A DNA stretch of 64,000 bases from Escherichia coli (lineage in GTDB: Bacteria; Pseudomonadota; Gammaproteobacteria; Enterobacterales; Enterobacteriaceae): the NCBI RefSeq assembly GCF_001677475.2, contig NZ_CP015229.1; one strand, given 5' to 3'. The notes under the pieces were generated by a model. It made no database searches. It was given only the letters and a program-made list of their open reading frames with translations, and was not told the DNA's origin. Position 1 is the stretch's first letter; every line of letters begins with the position of its first letter. Position numbers and translations under genes: made by a program. Positions 1,780-30,931 of the stretch are shown piece by piece.

Positions 1780-3279
1780 GTGACGCTCAATACTTCTCAG
1801 GTCAGTTACTATATGACTCAGCGTAAGAAAGGTATAACTCAGCATATCTCGGCCATGAAGGCTGGTATCTCAGTCCGTTCTGGTCGTCGGATCGAAAAAG
1901 GAGAGTGGGCAAAAAACAGTGTTCGGCACTGGCGCACACGCAAAGATCCTCTGGAAGCTGTGTGGGACAGCATGCTTGTTCCTCTGTTGAAAGAGAGGCC
2001 GGCTCTGACACCAACAACTCTACTGGAGATGCTACAGGATAAATATCCCGGCCAGTACCCCAACAGCCTTCGAAGAACAATGCAACGGCGGGTTCGCGAA
2101 TGGAAACTACAGTATGGTACAGAGCAGGAGGTCATGTTCCGCCAGCAACATCAGCCCGGCCTGCGAGGCCTGTCGGACTTTACTGAACTGAAAGGTGTAG
2201 TTGTCACCATCGCCGGTAAGTTGTTGGCGCATAAGTTGTATCACTTCCGTCTGGAATGGAGCCACTGGAGCTGGATGCGGGTTGTTCTGGGTGGTGAGAG
2301 CTTCTCTGCTCTGGCTGAAGGCCTGCAGGAAGCCCTCGGACAACTGGGCGGAGTGCCGGTAGAACATAAAACGGACAGCCTGAGGGCAGCATGGAAACAA
2401 CAGGGCGAAGATGGACGCCGCGAGCTGACTGAGCGTTATGCTACTCTCTGTCAGCACTACGGAATGCAGGGCGTACACAATAATGCCGGTCGGGGCCACG
2501 AAAATGGCTCGGTTGAAAGTGCCCACGGACATCTGAAAAGGCGTATCTGTCAGGCGCTGATACTGCGGGGCAGTAACGACTTCAGCACCATAGAAGAATA
2601 TCAGGCCTTCATCACTCAGCAGGTTATGCGGCACAACCGTAACAATCAGGATCTGGTCAAGGAAGAACGTCTTCATCTGAAACCGCTGCCGCTTCGTCGC
2701 AGTGCTGACTATGATGAGCTGACTGTGAGGGTTAGTCGCAGCAGTACCATCAATGTGAAGCACGTCGTCTACAGCGTACCTTCCCGGCTTGTAGGTCAAC
2801 TGTTACGGGTCAGGTTATGGGACGATCGTCTGAGCTGTTACGTTGGCAGCAGCGAGGTCATGAGCTGCCCTCGCGTCAGACCAGAAAAAGGGAAGACGCG
2901 GGCCCGTCGTATCGACTTCCGACATGTGATCGACAGTCTGGCAAAAAAGCCCGGTGCGTTCTGCCATGCAACGCTGAGAAATGACATCCTGCCGGACGAT
3001 GAATGGCGGAGGCTGTGGCGTCGCTTATGTAATCATCTGGAGCCCGATATGGCAGGAAGGCTGATGGTACATGCCCTGAAACTGGCTGCAGGATACGACG
3101 ATATCTCAGTCGTGGCAAAAGGTATGGAGCAGATGCTGAATACCCCGGGAAACGTGGATCTGCACCGGCTGATGCGCTTCCTGGGTATAAAAGAAAAGGC
3201 GTTGCCGGTAGTCAATGTGATACAGCATAACCTGAGCAGTTATGAGCAACTACTGCGTGGCAAGGGAGGTTCGCAGTGA
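1780..3279 (+). CDS. istA: IS21-family transposase IstA
   Basis: 499-aa ORF directly upstream of and overlapping the IstB-like gene; GTG start at 1780, alternative ATG at 1813. Confidence 0.75.
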   Translation: MTLNTSQVSYYMTQRKKGITQHISAMKAGISVRSGRRIEKGEWAKNSVRHWRTRKDPLEAVWDSMLVPLLKERPALTPTTLLEMLQDKYPGQYPNSLRRTMQRRVREWKLQYGTEQEVMFRQQHQPGLRGLSDFTELKGVVVTIAGKLLAHKLYHFRLEWSHWSWMRVVLGGESFSALAEGLQEALGQLGGVPVEHKTDSLRAAWKQQGEDGRRELTERYATLCQHYGMQGVHNNAGRGHENGSVESAHGHLKRRICQALILRGSNDFSTIEEYQAFITQQVMRHNRNNQDLVKEERLHLKPLPLRRSADYDELTVRVSRSSTINVKHVVYSVPSRLVGQLLRVRLWDDRLSCYVGSSEVMSCPRVRPEKGKTRARRIDFRHVIDSLAKKPGAFCHATLRNDILPDDEWRRLWRRLCNHLEPDMAGRLMVHALKLAAGYDDISVVAKGMEQMLNTPGNVDLHRLMRFLGIKEKALPVVNVIQHNLSSYEQLLRGKGGSQ

Positions 3280-4031
3280 GCAATATCCATCACCTTGAAC
3301 ATAGCCTGCGTAAACTACGCCTGACACGAGTTGGAGCTGAATGGCACGCTCTGGAAAAACGAGCGCTGGCAGAAGGCTGGACACCATCGCGCTATCTTCT
3401 GACGCTATGCAATGAAGAACTCCTGTGGCGCGAGAGTGAAAAACTGCGTCGTTATAAAAAGGAGGCCCGGTTGCCAGTTGCCAAAACGCTGAGCGAATAC
3501 GACTTCAGTCAGGTGCCGGAACTGAATGGAGCTCAGTTCCGGCAACTCTGTGAAACGACAGACTGGGTTGATGCAGGAGAAAACGTTCTGCTGTTCGGAG
3601 CCAGCGGGTTGGGGAAAAGCCATCTGGCGGCAGCGATCGTGGATGGCGTAGTAGGTCAGGGCTACCGGGCCCGGTTCTACAGCGCAGGAGAGCTGTTGCA
3701 GGAACTACGTAAAGCCAGAGCTCAGTTGAAACTGAATGAGCTGCTACTGAAACTGGATCGCTACCGGGTGATAGTGGTGGATGATCTTGGCTATGTCAAA
3801 CGCGATAGTGCCGAAACGGGTGTGCTGTTCGAGTTAATAGCGCATCGCTATGAACGTGGGAGCCTGGTGATAACCAGTAACCATCCGTTCAGCATGTGGG
3901 GCAGCATCTTCGTGGATGAGACTATGGCGGTGGCTGCGGCAGACAGGCTGATCCATCACGGATATATGTTCGAACTGAAAGGGGAAAGCTACAGGAAAAA
4001 GACAGCGAAGGCAGTAACAAGCGCGACTTGA
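3276..4031 (+). CDS. istB: IS21-family helper ATPase IstB
   Basis: 251-aa ORF with P-loop GASGLGKSHLAAA and a DnaA/IstB-like AAA+ layout (Walker B-like VIVVDDLGY). Confidence 0.85.
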   Translation: MSNIHHLEHSLRKLRLTRVGAEWHALEKRALAEGWTPSRYLLTLCNEELLWRESEKLRRYKKEARLPVAKTLSEYDFSQVPELNGAQFRQLCETTDWVDAGENVLLFGASGLGKSHLAAAIVDGVVGQGYRARFYSAGELLQELRKARAQLKLNELLLKLDRYRVIVVDDLGYVKRDSAETGVLFELIAHRYERGSLVITSNHPFSMWGSIFVDETMAVAAADRLIHHGYMFELKGESYRKKTAKAVTSAT

Positions 4032-17694: not shown

Positions 17695-17704
17695 TGGGGT
17701 GAAT

Positions 17705-19801
17705 ATGGCAGTAAAGATTTCAGGTGTCCTGAAAGACGGAGCGGGTGAGCCTGTCGTAAACTGTGCGATTGAATTGCGTGCCAGAAGAACCAGTCCGACA
17801 GTTGTGGTTAATATTGTGGCAACCTGTCTTACGGGAAGTGATGGCGGGTATACTATTAATGCTGAGCCGGGATTTTATGATGTATTTTTGTCCCGCACAG
17901 GGCATCCTCCTGTAAAGGCGGGGGAAATTTATGTTGCACCGACAGATGAGCCGGATACGCTGAATGCTTTTCTGGATGCACCAAAGGAGGGTGATTTACG
18001 CCCTGAGGTAATGAAGCGTTTTGAGGAAATGGTAAATACCGTTGTTCGCTTGTCTGAGCAGGTGGTCAGTGACAGGGAGAGAGCAGAAACAGCTGCTGAT
18101 GATGCAATTAATGCAGCAACATCTGCGGCGGGTAGTAAGGATGAGGCAGAAGAGCTAAAAAATCAGACACAGCAGAGCGCCGAAGCTGCAGCCGGAAACG
18201 CACAGCAGACGGCACAGGATGTGACGACAACCGCAACGGCCCGTGATGATGCGGAACGTTTTGCGAATGAGGCTGAAAACAGCGCACAGTCATCAGGCAC
18301 AGCGCGGGACGAATCAGTCGATGCCGCCGAACGCGCCCGCCTTTATCATAATGCCGCATCAGCAGCAGCGACCAGTTCAGAACTGTCGGCAAATGCGGCG
18401 CTGGGGCACAAAAACAGTGCCGCCGAATACGCCCGACAGGCTAAAGCCAGCCAGGATGCAGGTGCAGACAATGCGCAGGAAGCGAAACAGTTCAGGGATG
18501 AGGCACAGCAGATTGTTGATGACCTGAATGCAACAAATGCCAGCACGACAGAAAAAGGTCTGGTGCAACTCTGTAGTGATACGGACAACGACAGCGAGGA
18601 ACTGGCTGCCACGCCAAAGGCTGTCAGACTCGTCATGGACGAGACGAAAACAAAAGCGCCACTGGACAGCCCGGCTTTCACCGGCATCCCAACCACCCCA
18701 ACCCCACCGGATGATGCCGCCGGTCTGGAAGCAGCGAACGCAGCGTTTGTGCGCAAACTGCTTGCTGCGCTGGTTGGCTCATCGCCGGAAGTTCTGGACA
18801 CCCTGAACGAACTGGCAGCGGCGCTGGGCAATGACCCGGAGTTTGCGACCTCAATCATGAATGCGCTGGCAGGCAAACAACCGCTTAATGACGTCTTAAC
18901 GGCAATCAGCGCACTGACGCAACGGTCAGATAATCTTCTGTACTTCAATACGGACGGGAATGCCTCACTGTCTCTGCTGTCAGAGAAGGGCCGCGCATTA
19001 CTGGCGCATGACACAGCTGAAGCCATGCGCACGGAGCTTGAGCTGAAAGCAGCTGCGACGATGGAACCCCAGAGTGATATTCGCGACCGCACATCCGGCA
19101 GGCTGGCGCTGTCCGGGATGTATGGGTTTGGACAGGCATTCACCAGCGCCGACGCTCTGTCATTTAACGGACAGGCTGATTTCGTTGAGTGGTTGAAGAA
19201 AGTCACGCCGGGGCGGTATGCGGTCAGTATTACAGACTCCTCGCAACTGCTTACCGGTACCACGCAATTTAACGGCATTATTGATGTGATGTGGTCACCG
19301 TACGCCAACAGTGAATCTGATACAGTCCGCAAATTTAAAACCCTGATGTGTTACAACCAGTATTATCAGGGTGAACACTGTATTCACTATATGCAGTACC
19401 GGTACAACGACAGTGATAACAGCTGGAACATGTCATCGCGGGTAGTTGTATACGACGGAGATTCTCTCGCTTATTTATTATCGCGGTTATCCGGTAATGG
19501 TCCGTTCTCATATTACCAATACCCGGCCGTCGGTGTGCCGATTATGGCGGTATATCAGGGAGAAAGTTTTGGTGAAAATGCTTCTCTGGGACTCGGTGAT
19601 ACTGTGCCGGGTTCCCGTCTTGGTCCTCTGGCCATGAGTGCACCGGTTAGTGATACAGGGACATACGCATCCTCACCGCAGGTTGTGATTGGCGGTGCCG
19701 GTGAATACAACTTCCCCGGTCGTTACATGGCGCTTTCGGGCTTAGGTAACAATTATGGTACTCAGCGTGGCTTTATCGGTCTTTTTGTACGCATTGAGTA
19801 A
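17705..19801 (+). CDS. Side tail fibre protein (lambda Stf-like N-terminus)
   Basis: Starts MAVKISGVLKDGAGEPV, matching the conserved Stf N-terminal domain. Has a coiled-coil middle and a divergent C-terminal receptor-binding region. Confidence 0.85.
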   Translation: MAVKISGVLKDGAGEPVVNCAIELRARRTSPTVVVNIVATCLTGSDGGYTINAEPGFYDVFLSRTGHPPVKAGEIYVAPTDEPDTLNAFLDAPKEGDLRPEVMKRFEEMVNTVVRLSEQVVSDRERAETAADDAINAATSAAGSKDEAEELKNQTQQSAEAAAGNAQQTAQDVTTTATARDDAERFANEAENSAQSSGTARDESVDAAERARLYHNAASAAATSSELSANAALGHKNSAAEYARQAKASQDAGADNAQEAKQFRDEAQQIVDDLNATNASTTEKGLVQLCSDTDNDSEELAATPKAVRLVMDETKTKAPLDSPAFTGIPTTPTPPDDAAGLEAANAAFVRKLLAALVGSSPEVLDTLNELAAALGNDPEFATSIMNALAGKQPLNDVLTAISALTQRSDNLLYFNTDGNASLSLLSEKGRALLAHDTAEAMRTELELKAAATMEPQSDIRDRTSGRLALSGMYGFGQAFTSADALSFNGQADFVEWLKKVTPGRYAVSITDSSQLLTGTTQFNGIIDVMWSPYANSESDTVRKFKTLMCYNQYYQGEHCIHYMQYRYNDSDNSWNMSSRVVVYDGDSLAYLLSRLSGNGPFSYYQYPAVGVPIMAVYQGESFGENASLGLGDTVPGSRLGPLAMSAPVSDTGTYASSPQVVIGGAGEYNFPGRYMALSGLGNNYGTQRGFIGLFVRIE

Positions 19802-20400
19802 TGAGGAAATCAGGCATGAAAATCAGAGCGGTGAAAGGCATCAGAAACGCACATTATCTTGAAAATGGTGCGATTGACTGCGAGGTGTTATTTGAAGGTG
19901 AAACGGAGTTCGCCATGTATACCGCCATACAGGATGATACAGCCCCGACAGGCCAGCACATCTGGCAGGAGCTGCAAAGCGGGAAATGGGGCGAAATCGT
20001 CCCGTTCACCGTCACGCCTGAACTTATTGCAGCGGCAAAGGATGCCAAAAGGCGGGAGATTGAGGCATGGCGCGACAGTCAGGAAAACGTTGAGTTTATT
20101 TTCACGTTTGATGGTCGTCGTTTTGATGGTGGAAAAACCTCGCAGTCACGCCTTGCGCCCGTGGTTGCAACAGCACAGGCCGGACTGCTTCCGGAGGGTT
20201 TTTTCTGGACTGATGCGGATAATAACAACGTCGTACTGACCAGGGAGAAACTTATTGCGCTGAACGATGCCATGATGGTGGCCATGGTGGCGGAGGGCTT
20301 TAAAATCCACGAACGTCAGCGGGAGATGAAAGAGGAGCTGAGTAGCCTCGAGGATTTACACTCAATCAGGAAGTTGCTCGTTAACTCAGAAAAAATTTGA
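19801..20400 (+). CDS. Putative tail fibre assembly protein (atypical Tfa-like)
   Basis: 199-aa ORF overlapping the stf stop and last gene before the tRNA. Assigned by position; it does not closely resemble canonical lambda Tfa. Confidence 0.45.
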   Translation: MRKSGMKIRAVKGIRNAHYLENGAIDCEVLFEGETEFAMYTAIQDDTAPTGQHIWQELQSGKWGEIVPFTVTPELIAAAKDAKRREIEAWRDSQENVEFIFTFDGRRFDGGKTSQSRLAPVVATAQAGLLPEGFFWTDADNNNVVLTREKLIALNDAMMVAMVAEGFKIHERQREMKEELSSLEDLHSIRKLLVNSEKI

Positions 20401-20508
20401 GATACCAAAGACATCAAAGAGGTGCTGGCGGGAAAATATCGCAGATATTAAAAACTGAAAATATACCAATTGGTATACCAAGTTTATACCAAGAACCCAA
20501 AAAGCAAA

Positions 20509-20530
20509 GGGGCTACCATTTGGTAACCCC
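20509..20530 (-). terminator. Hairpin plus T-run downstream of serT (probable tRNA terminator)
   Basis: On the minus strand GGGGTTACCA-AA-TGGTAGCCCC is followed by TTTGCTTTTT. Confidence 0.5.
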
Positions 20531-20539
20531 TTGATTATT

Positions 20540-20627
20540 TGGCGGAAGCGCAGAGATTCGAACTCTGGAACCCTTTCGGGTCGCCGGTTTTCAAGACCGG
20601 TGCCTTCAACCGCTCGGCCACACTTCC
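20540..20627 (-). tRNA. serT: tRNA-Ser (anticodon UGA)
   Basis: Reverse complement reads GGAAGTGTGGCCGAGCGGTTGAAGGCACCGGTCTTGAAAACCGGCGACCCGAAAGGGTTCCAGAGTTCGAATCTCTGCGCTTCCGCCA: 88 nt with long variable arm and encoded CCA. Confidence 0.95.
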
Positions 20628-21053
20628 GGAATGACGCGCACTATAAACATCCCGATGCGGCGTGTAAACCCCTAATTTGTTTGTTTGCCTGAAAAACAGC
20701 CAAAAGAGCATTGATAGCATGAAATAACAGCAGATTGATCATTTCATCACCATGAATTCCTTCTCTTTTACTCGTTTAGCAACCGGCTAAACATCCCCAC
20801 TGCCCGGCAAAAAGAAAAATAGGTCCATTTTTATCGCTAAAAGATAAATCCACACAGTTTGTATTGTTTTGTGCAAAAGTTTCACTACGCTTTATTAACA
20901 ATACTTTCTGGCGACGTGCGCCAGTGCAGAAGGATGAGCTTTCGTTTTCAGCATCTCACGTGAAGCGATGGTTTGCCTTGCTACAGGGACGTCGCTTGCC
21001 GACCATGTGCGCCCGGTGTCCTGCCGGTGTCGCAAGGAGAAGAGACGTGCGAT

Positions 21054-29461: not shown

Positions 29462-29492
29462 GCCTGATGCGGCGCATTAGCGTCGCATCAGG
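29462..29492. repeat. REP (repetitive extragenic palindromic) element
   Basis: GCCTGATGCGGCGCATTAGCGTCGCATCAGGC palindrome between appX and appA. Confidence 0.7.
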
Positions 29493-29527
29493 CAATAATG
29501 TCGGATATGAAAAGCGGAAACATATCG

Positions 29528-30894: not shown

Positions 30895-30931
30895 CGTAGA
30901 CCGGAAAAGGCGTTCACGCCGCATCCGGTCA
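30895..30931. repeat. REP element
   Basis: Reverse complement GTGACCGGATGCGGCGTGAACGCCTTTTCCGGTCTAC matches the REP consensus. Confidence 0.7.

Follow-up and report, generated by a model that had tools for sequence, protein, structure and literature searches.

What are a perfect palindrome and a cluster of short repeats doing between the last gene of a prophage and an intact tRNA gene? The DNA that we analysed is a 64,000-bp stretch of Escherichia coli sequence (hereafter, the window). To the left of the repeats lie the last two prophage genes: a 700-aa tail-fibre gene (17699-19801, plus strand), whose homologue in strain N96 is annotated as 'prophage tail fiber N-terminal domain-containing protein', and a tfa-like gene (19801-20400, plus strand) that matches Pfam DUF4376 (E = 4e-19), a family of tail-fibre assembly/chaperone genes. 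To the right lies serT, the gene for tRNA-Ser(UGA) (20540-20627, minus strand), which ARAGORN, the Rfam tRNA model and its identity to the K-12 gene all identify as intact. A promoter-like site for serT, recognised by consensus match only (TTTACA, 17-nt spacer, TATAGT; 20640-20668, minus strand), is on the bacterial side, and hyaA follows to the right. The placement of the repeats between tfa and serT, as given in the first-pass annotation, is thus correct, since the DUF4376 reading frame ends at 20400 and the tRNA starts at 20540.

We consider it likely that the block in question is the phage half of attR, left by a lambdoid prophage inserted in serT, and that it comprises Int arm-type repeats together with a terminator supplied by the phage. 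The observations behind this reading are the phage origin of the DNA, its boundaries, the contiguity of the corresponding attP, the homology of the integrase to that of lambda and the retention of site positions while the motif itself changes. The mechanism is classical and the element, as represented by Sp4/CP-933M and phage Evi, is common; the locus is a real and well-defined example of an ordinary and well-known kind.

The repeats and the palindrome

An inverted-repeat search returned the perfect 16-bp palindrome TATACCAATTGGTATA at 20462-20477, as the first-pass annotation had it. Around it the 8-mer TATACCAA is present in three direct copies that start at 20462, 20474 and 20485, with start-to-start distances of 12 and 11 nt. 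The further TATACCA copies noted previously at 20474-20480 and 20485-20491 are real, although what is repeated is in fact a 9-mer rather than TATACCA alone. We refer to the three direct copies as candidate arm-type sites T1 (TATACCAAT, 20462-20470), T2 (TATACCAAG, 20474-20482) and T3 (TATACCAAG, 20485-20493), all on the plus strand; measured from the end of the attP/attB identity described below, they are at -138, -126 and -115. An inverted copy, which reads TATACCAAT on the minus strand, occupies 20469-20477 (its counterpart in Evi is at -130), and it is the overlap of the inverted 8-mer within it (TTGGTATA, 20470-20477) with T1 and T2 that makes the palindrome. The window contains four copies of TATACCAA, all of them within 31 bp, against 1.09 expected window-wide, and the cluster is therefore not a product of chance.

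That the repeats might form a structured RNA or belong to a known RNA family was considered and rejected, as an Rfam scan returned the tRNA alone, with all remaining matches far under the gathering scores, and the fold of the palindrome on the serT-sense strand was not unusual (z = -0.48). No promoter-like site was predicted at the palindrome. A 45-aa reading frame with a TTG start (20397-20534) covers both the repeats and the terminator and is almost certainly not a gene. Repeats of other kinds are also present in the window. REP/BIME-like palindromic units, GCCTGATAAGACGCG...AGCGTCGCATCAGGC, were seen in its chromosomal part at 50530-50670, 29479-29498 and 30904-30928, and two adjoining 62-nt direct repeats that are 73% identical, apparently in coding sequence, are found at 56235-56362.

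Phage origin of the block and the structure of attR

When a 701-bp query around the site was compared with 5426 complete E. coli genomes, matches were found in 5425 of them and full coverage in only 44. In the majority, K-12 derivatives included, the alignment extended only from 20500 rightwards; in a second class, to which O157:H7 belongs, it began at window position 20458. A 61-nt probe for the repeat block was present in 702 of the 5426 genomes, nearly always from 20458. About 13% of complete E. coli genomes have this attachment module, and Sp4/CP-933M of O157:H7, which carries effectors, is among its bearers. Among 14 sampled sequences with at least four different left flanks (tfa, EspV/TccP2 remnants and others), the homology started at 20458, 4 nt ahead of the first repeat, whatever the left neighbour. 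A 36-nt block, AAAATATACCAATTGGTATACCAAGTTTATACCAAG, was unchanged in 13 of the 14, the exception (L130) having one substitution in T3, and the bases directly after this block varied.

The empty site in K-12 TOP10 has the order yccA-serT-hyaA, with no TATACCAA within 600 bp and with a terminator stem, GGGGTTAGC-ATTT-AGCTAACCCC, that differs from that of the window. It follows that neither the repeats nor the hairpin of the window are the native flank of serT. A bacterial origin of the repeats was accordingly rejected on the strength of both the K-12 comparison and the genome survey; the repeats are absent from prophage-free serT loci, the comparison on which the first-pass annotation had wished its reading to be judged.

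The free phage Evi (LR597642.1) provides the contiguous attP to which this DNA corresponds, with 98.6% identity over 20458-20599 (142 nt). In the orientation of the window, the order in Evi is tail fibres, an EspV remnant, the repeat block, the same hairpin and the 3' 60 nt of serT, after which come a 141-bp second arm, int and a DUF4224 gene, the latter two on the minus strand. The same contiguous arrangement of arm, core, arm and int was found in three IMG/VR contigs (L096, L116 and L121). In strain N96 (L001) the junction is 99.7% identical to that of the window, and a second copy of window positions 20507-20599 lies beside int at the far end of the prophage. The window itself begins inside the late genes and contains neither attL nor int. 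The cognate int being outside the window, we took the integrase from N96 and Evi, two cases in which the junction shares 98.6-99.7% identity with that of the window. A clean attL was taken from IMG/VR L031, since the N96 DNA past int belongs to another prophage remnant; in L031 the order is int, second arm, serT 3' half and a K-12-type terminator. The comparison with the other prophage end that had been recommended at the outset is thus available from two sources, the N96 copy and the L031 attL with its K-12 terminator.

The region past int in N96 (48900-49340, reverse strand) is of some interest in its own right. In the place of yccA it holds a further prophage remnant with a partial lom, and the att copy of this remnant has a single TATACCA and a hybrid phage/K-12 terminator, which is what a tandem insertion in serT with a decayed arm looks like. 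The serT gene is a recognised prophage site, tandem insertions included (PMC10132054, PMC8767318).

The identity between attP (Evi) and attB (K-12) is limited to a 65-bp block at 20535-20599, made up of the 3' 60 nt of serT with 5 nt of flank; the strands must be exchanged somewhere within these 65 bp. The identity ends just past the anticodon loop, and this end point in the tRNA is shared by all relatives. Judging from other integrases that target tRNA genes, we infer that the strands are exchanged within the anticodon loop itself, at 20589-20595, which would form a 7-bp overlap region at the edge of the identity block. The serT gene in the window is identical to that of K-12, its 3' 60 nt having been donated by the phage and its 5' 28 nt being bacterial. 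The window therefore contains attR, and the phage contributed all of the DNA leftwards from about 20599, among it the terminator and the 3' two-thirds of serT; that 20458-20599, the attP arm plus the attB-identical segment, is the att arm of a phage seems to us virtually certain. This fixes the right-hand boundary of the prophage to the base, inside serT at about 20599, and it accounts for serT having stayed intact and terminated despite the insertion. The possibility that attP carries a reconstituted tRNA 3' flank, raised in the first-pass annotation, is borne out, with the addition that the terminator in the window is the phage version and not that of K-12.

A terminator scan places the intrinsic serT terminator at 20497-20532 on the minus strand. 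It has an 11-bp stem and a 4-nt loop (20507-20532) followed by UGCUUUUUGG, and it lies 7 nt from the 3' end of serT, on the same strand. The hairpin had been noted before, just ahead of the tRNA 3' end; we find it at 20509-20530, or 20507-20532 when two extra A-T pairs are counted. On the serT strand its fold is -23.9 kcal/mol (z = -4.55), with UGCUUUUUGG as the U-run after it, as compared to -21.6 kcal/mol for its K-12 counterpart, which is followed by UUUUUCUUUUG. The two stems, GGGGUUACC/GGUAGCCCC in the window versus GGGGUUAGC/GCUAACCCC in K-12, differ by compensatory changes (C-G to G-C and U-G to U-A), and the stem is also kept in BUCT708, S.Kent and IMG/VR attP variants, albeit in a small sample. 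The simplest reading of these sequences is that the phage brings a replacement intrinsic terminator for serT, the native one having been displaced, in which case serT transcription would stop before running antisense into the tail genes. The suggestion that the hairpin might be a recombinase site is in this respect replaced by that of a serT terminator, although an IHF consensus match does overlap it.

Duplication of the tRNA 3' part from the anticodon loop onwards, such that the gene stays intact, is a feature of attP in the tRNA-targeting elements P22, P4 and HP1. What distinguishes the present phage from these is that it supplies a complete alternative terminator hairpin as well.

With regard to the identity of the element, the O157:H7 prophage at serT carries a frameshifted EspF-repeat gene and tccP2 has been reported on Sp4/CP-933M (PMC2884950), and we therefore equate the O157:H7 serT prophage with Sp4/CP-933M. 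Sp4/CP-933M and Evi share with the window the arm-core block (98.6% over 142 nt) and an integrase that is 98% identical, that is, the same attachment module; they differ in having EspV and TccP2 remnants next to the arm, where the window has tfa directly adjoining. In Sp4/CP-933M-like prophages (L003, which is O157:H7 FRIK2533, at 1729-2987, and also L128 and L129), pseudogenes of EspV and TccP2 (EspF-repeat) separate the tail fibres from the arm and stop 4 nt short of its first repeat, with the cargo thus gathering exactly at the outer edge of attP.

The contiguity of attP also bears on the idea that a tail-fibre DNA invertase of the Hin/Gin/Pin type uses the palindrome for crossover. The position of the palindrome beside the tail-fibre and tfa genes invites this idea, and two phages with related integrases, ST64B and BUCT708, carry a pin-like recombinase gene near attP. 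Nonetheless, there is no inverted partner for the palindrome anywhere in the window and no invertase gene between tfa/tail fibre and serT, and the block is already accounted for by attP. We give this possibility almost no weight. The half-site of the palindrome is also not known to resemble the hix and gix half-sites.

The integrase and its candidate arm-type sites

The N96 integrase aligns with full-length lambda Int (1z1b, 1z1g, 5j0n) from residue 1, over residues 1-339 (E = 1e-16). This alignment takes in the N-terminal arm-binding domain, the N-terminal motifs of which also align, and on this homology an arm-binding domain is predicted for the N96 protein. The attP of each of six free phages with related integrases was then set beside that of Evi, namely Chris1 (integrase 61% identical), BUCT708 (54%), KpF5 (51%), ST64B (49%), Fostie (43%) and mEp390 (42%), with all positions counted from the end of the tRNA-identical segment. 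Three tandem direct sites are found at -139/-140, -126/-127 and -115/-116; on the other arm there is a core-proximal inverted site at +40/+41 in all six relatives and a distal direct site at +103 to +106 in Chris1, KpF5, ST64B, mEp390 and Evi, with no match to the distal copy in Fostie or BUCT708. The tandem positions hold in Evi, Chris1, KpF5, ST64B and BUCT708, and in mEp390 and Fostie the tandem array is about 20-30 nt further out (-171 to -140).

The 8-mer at these positions varies by phage. Across the seven phages, whose integrases are 42-98% identical, it is TATACCAA, TATTCTAA, TTTTCTCA, ATGGCGAA or ATTATGAA, and in a matrix of own-motif and cross-motif matches each phage fitted its own 8-mer and not those of the others. 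A TATTCCAAG type (L202) likewise has exact inverted and direct copies at the two right-arm positions. In Evi the motif is present at -138, -130 (inverted), -126 and -115, and an exact TATACCAAG is found at +104, so that both arms are represented. Concerted change of one motif at five fixed positions, spread over both arms, is what marks Int arm-type sites. We therefore favor this assignment and consider it likely, going by sequence comparison, that the repeats are predicted binding sites of Int in the present attR.

The repeats might alternatively be functionless, either as an AT-rich remnant of a defective prophage or by chance. Many E. coli prophages are defective, the remnant adjoining the N96 prophage keeps just one repeat, and ompW prophages (PPompW, see below) hold a decayed copy of the entire site. 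Four lines of evidence argue against this for the block in the window: (i) all four 8-mers fall within 31 bp; (ii) the block is invariant where adjoining bases vary; (iii) Evi, which was recovered as a free phage genome, has the block too and (iv) the site positions are conserved across divergent phages. We regard a relic as very unlikely.

The first-pass annotation had left open whether integrase or Xis/IHF would be the protein that recognises the repeats. In the case of Xis, the direct repeats would be sites for an excisionase (RDF), here the DUF4224 protein, comparable to X1-X1.5-X2 of lambda; three direct repeats about one helical turn apart on a single arm do resemble the site of a Xis filament, and a DUF4224 gene always precedes int. 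However, the motif is also found on the other arm, at +104 and, in the relatives, at +40, which is a hallmark of Int arm sites and not of Xis sites, and the layout fits the five Int arm sites of lambda. Moreover, the motif does not co-vary with the DUF4224 protein, a putative excisionase: L085 and BUCT708 share TATTCTAA with DUF4224 proteins that are only 26% identical, and those of L085 and N96 are 62% identical yet their motifs differ. We judge excisionase sites to be an unlikely explanation, and it is the Int arm-type half of the original suggestion, supported by the presence of the motif on both arms at fixed positions, that we retain.

Consistent with a role for Int, in a set of 46 loci the motif class followed the first beta-strand of the Int N-terminal domain, a correlation that is confounded by shared ancestry and by the small number of independent lineages. 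The residues concerned are V-T/R with TATACCAA, V-Y with TATTCYAA (TATTC(C/T)AA) and V-F-F with TTTTCTCA; identity over the whole domain was uninformative as a predictor of the motif, and only the residues of the first beta-strand tracked it. For these loci the triplet search was run from 80 nt upstream of the int stop codon, given that int overlaps the repeats in most of them. Integrases that are 71-78% identical (L080, L081 and L083) and the 'RVSKT(R/K)TRYYYK' group had no tRNA or triplet beside int and were left out. The pairing of N-domain variants with arm motifs (TATACCAA, TATTCCAA, TATTCTAA, TTTTCTCA and ATGGCGAA) at fixed positions amounts to a testable specificity code for a widespread family of lambda-type integrases, with the known mechanism left unchanged.

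The likeness to lambda extends beyond the integrase, which is homologous over its full length including the N-domain. We checked the topology of lambda attP directly: P1 is direct, P2 inverted, and after the core come P'1-P'3, direct and at 10-11 nt, followed by int. In both systems a motif that has nothing in common with the core occurs five times, three of the copies being in tandem, direct and about one helical turn apart, and in the present integrase family the other arm has, as in lambda, a core-proximal inverted and a distal direct copy. In both, the outermost arm site is the edge of attP, and the putative IHF sites, one consensus match in each arm, may be a further point of likeness. 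The differences are in the motif (GTCACTAT in lambda, TATACCAAG in the window), in the identity core, which in the window is in a tRNA gene and 65 bp long as opposed to 15 bp in lambda, and in the distance of the tandem sites from the crossover side, which at 115-138 bp is unlike that in lambda as the tRNA 3' half and the terminator come between.

As for IHF, the consensus match AATCAAGGGGTTA, which fits WATCAANNNNTTR, is located at 20524-20536 on the minus strand and is one of four such matches in the 64-kb window. There are only two exact WATCAANNNNTTR matches in the 6.1-kb Evi locus (0.23 expected), both in attP, at -76..-64 (equivalent to window 20524-20536) and +72..+84; these are consensus matches only. 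The IHF consensus is not kept in all relatives, being missing in BUCT708, and it is also missing in the K-12 flank.

A likely scenario for how these elements work together is as follows. The phage attP carries the 3' 60 nt of serT and then its own terminator, and a lambda-type tyrosine integrase would cross over at or near the serT anticodon loop. Integration would rebuild an intact serT with the phage terminator (20497-20532), and the native serT 3' half and terminator would end up at the opposite end of the prophage. The direct TATACCAA(T/G) repeats, three in number, probably correspond to the P'1-P'2-P'3 triplet of lambda and act as docking sites for the small N-terminal domain of the integrase, with bends introduced by IHF (consensus at 20524-20536) and arm-bound integrase together providing reach to the core sites in both integration and excision. 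Within this scenario, binding by the Int N-domain, the use of IHF and the exact crossover point are the steps that we infer. It would give the conspicuous palindrome a concrete, if putative, function.

There is precedent for the activity of an integrase from this family. The ST64B Int, putatively the IntA (Sb28 product) of that study, catalyses attP x attB recombination in vitro (PMC12455584); arm-type sites are not mentioned there. We found no description of arm-type sites for this integrase family in the searchable literature, and the specific sites reported here appear to be undescribed in it.

Several further features of these loci came to light during the comparison. In the TATTCCAA and TATTCTAA types (L088 and L167-L202, which are of the 606R7 type, and L005/L142), the int reading frame runs into the tandem repeats, its stop codon falling 11-25 nt past the start of the first repeat, and the C-terminal codons of Int are its own arm sites. 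In Evi (L004, about 3262-3280) a second perfect 16-bp palindrome, CCAGAAAATTTTCTGG, is situated directly downstream of int, before the +104 site, and this may be an int terminator or a retroregulation element like lambda sib. BUCT708 (L005, 3001-3126) was deposited as Stenotrophomonas phage vB_SmeS_BUCT708. Its attP holds the 3' 59 nt of serT in exactly the E. coli sequence, many IMG/VR prophages (L131-L144) have a near-identical integrase, and an intact serT-like tRNA lies next to the att arm in one of these (L142); to us the stated host seems questionable. Lastly, a TATACCAA triplet with 12/11 spacing is found inside a 245-aa reading frame of an unrelated metagenomic phage (L099, 3435-3465; also L124). 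From its N-terminal sequence the L099 product looks replisome-organizer-like, and the triplet probably represents origin iterons, a chance match unrelated to att.

An inverted attP and the place of the palindrome

The relatives of the window phage are those that combine this type of Int with DUF4224 (ST64B, Chris1, KpF5, mEp390, Fostie, BUCT708 and the 606R7 type). Their targets are serU, serT and another tRNA, their integrases are 42-61% identical, their arm sites agree in position to within 1-2 bp and, as in the window, their attP includes the tRNA 3' half; Chris1 and many IMG/VR prophages even have the very same TATACCAA motif. They are unlike the window in having a spacing of 13/11 or 13/10, an inverted site at +40 and no palindrome. 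Where a relative was seen to have the triplet beside int, the repeats directly adjoin the 3' end of the gene or overlap with it, at 13/11 or 13/10. The window/Evi/Sp4 type differs from every relative examined in that its attP, about 260 bp long, is turned round as a whole with respect to int; its triplet is int-distal, with a spacing of 12/11, and prophages of this type consequently sit in the opposite orientation to the target tRNA. The inversion can be seen by comparing Evi (L004, 3001-3300) with L087, L089, L090, L091 and L005, as the triplet arm, the tRNA 3' half and the second arm are all inverted with respect to int. Four serT-type loci (L094, L103, L106 and L111) have int on the usual side of the relatives but 0.9-2 kb off.

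The number of sites per arm is also unusual in this type. Instead of the canonical 3 + 2 layout, the window/Evi type has three direct sites and one inverted site on one arm and one site on the other. The +40 inverted site is absent from the Evi type, in which this position reads CTGAAAAG, and a candidate arm site at +60 in Evi (AACACCAAG) was dropped as it is not conserved in L096. One locus, L105, has both the canonical +40 and +104 sites. The positional analogy with lambda is thus weaker for the window/Evi type, in that the tandem arm is int-distal, the spacing is 12/11, there is no +40 site and the inverted copy lies inside the tandem array and not on the other arm.

Salmonella (S.Kent) and other serT-type sites have three direct repeats at 13/11 and no palindrome. 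As the relatives keep the triplet without the palindrome, the conserved functional unit is the triplet. The earlier proposal that palindrome and repeats together make up the site consequently stands for the direct repeats and not for the palindrome, given that Salmonella and other relatives lack the latter.

This also speaks to the possibility that a dimeric regulator, from phage or host, uses the palindrome as its operator to control an adjoining gene, with no role in recombination. A perfect dyad is typical of the operators of dimeric helix-turn-helix proteins and, by our calculation, with T1 and T2 spaced 12 nt apart only about 1 in 256 spacers yields a palindrome. On the other hand, no promoter-like site is predicted at the palindrome, the block travels with the att core even though the left-hand genes differ among prophages, relatives retain the three direct repeats and lose the palindrome, and a second copy is absent both from the window and from the 50-kb N96 prophage. 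There is in our estimation a very slight chance that this is an operator.

Returning to the Int arm-type reading, the palindrome is lineage-specific, and it is either incidental or a relocated P2-like site. In a diverged PPompW fossil the 12-nt spacing is accompanied by an inverted copy that matches at 7 of 8 positions, a hint that the inverted copy predates the extant E. coli clade. We offer as a tentative proposal, and one that we think somewhat less probable than its negation, that the lineage comprising the window, Evi and Sp4/CP-933M has been rewired, its attP having been inverted with respect to int and the P2-like site having been lost from the short arm and re-created in the triplet. 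If this were true, four of the five Int arm sites would be on attR after integration and one on attL, a naturally occurring 4 + 1 layout in place of the classical 3 + 2, with consequences for directing excision.

The fossil just mentioned is a degenerate serT-type attP, 84% identical, that is found in ompW prophages (PPompW_132418, which is L006, at about 2990-3200; hits H45-H54). It includes a mutated tRNA fragment and has the host-specificity gene on one side and the genes for T3SS effectors (espO, nleG and espM) on the other, a layout that looks as if effector cargo had been appended beyond an old att site.
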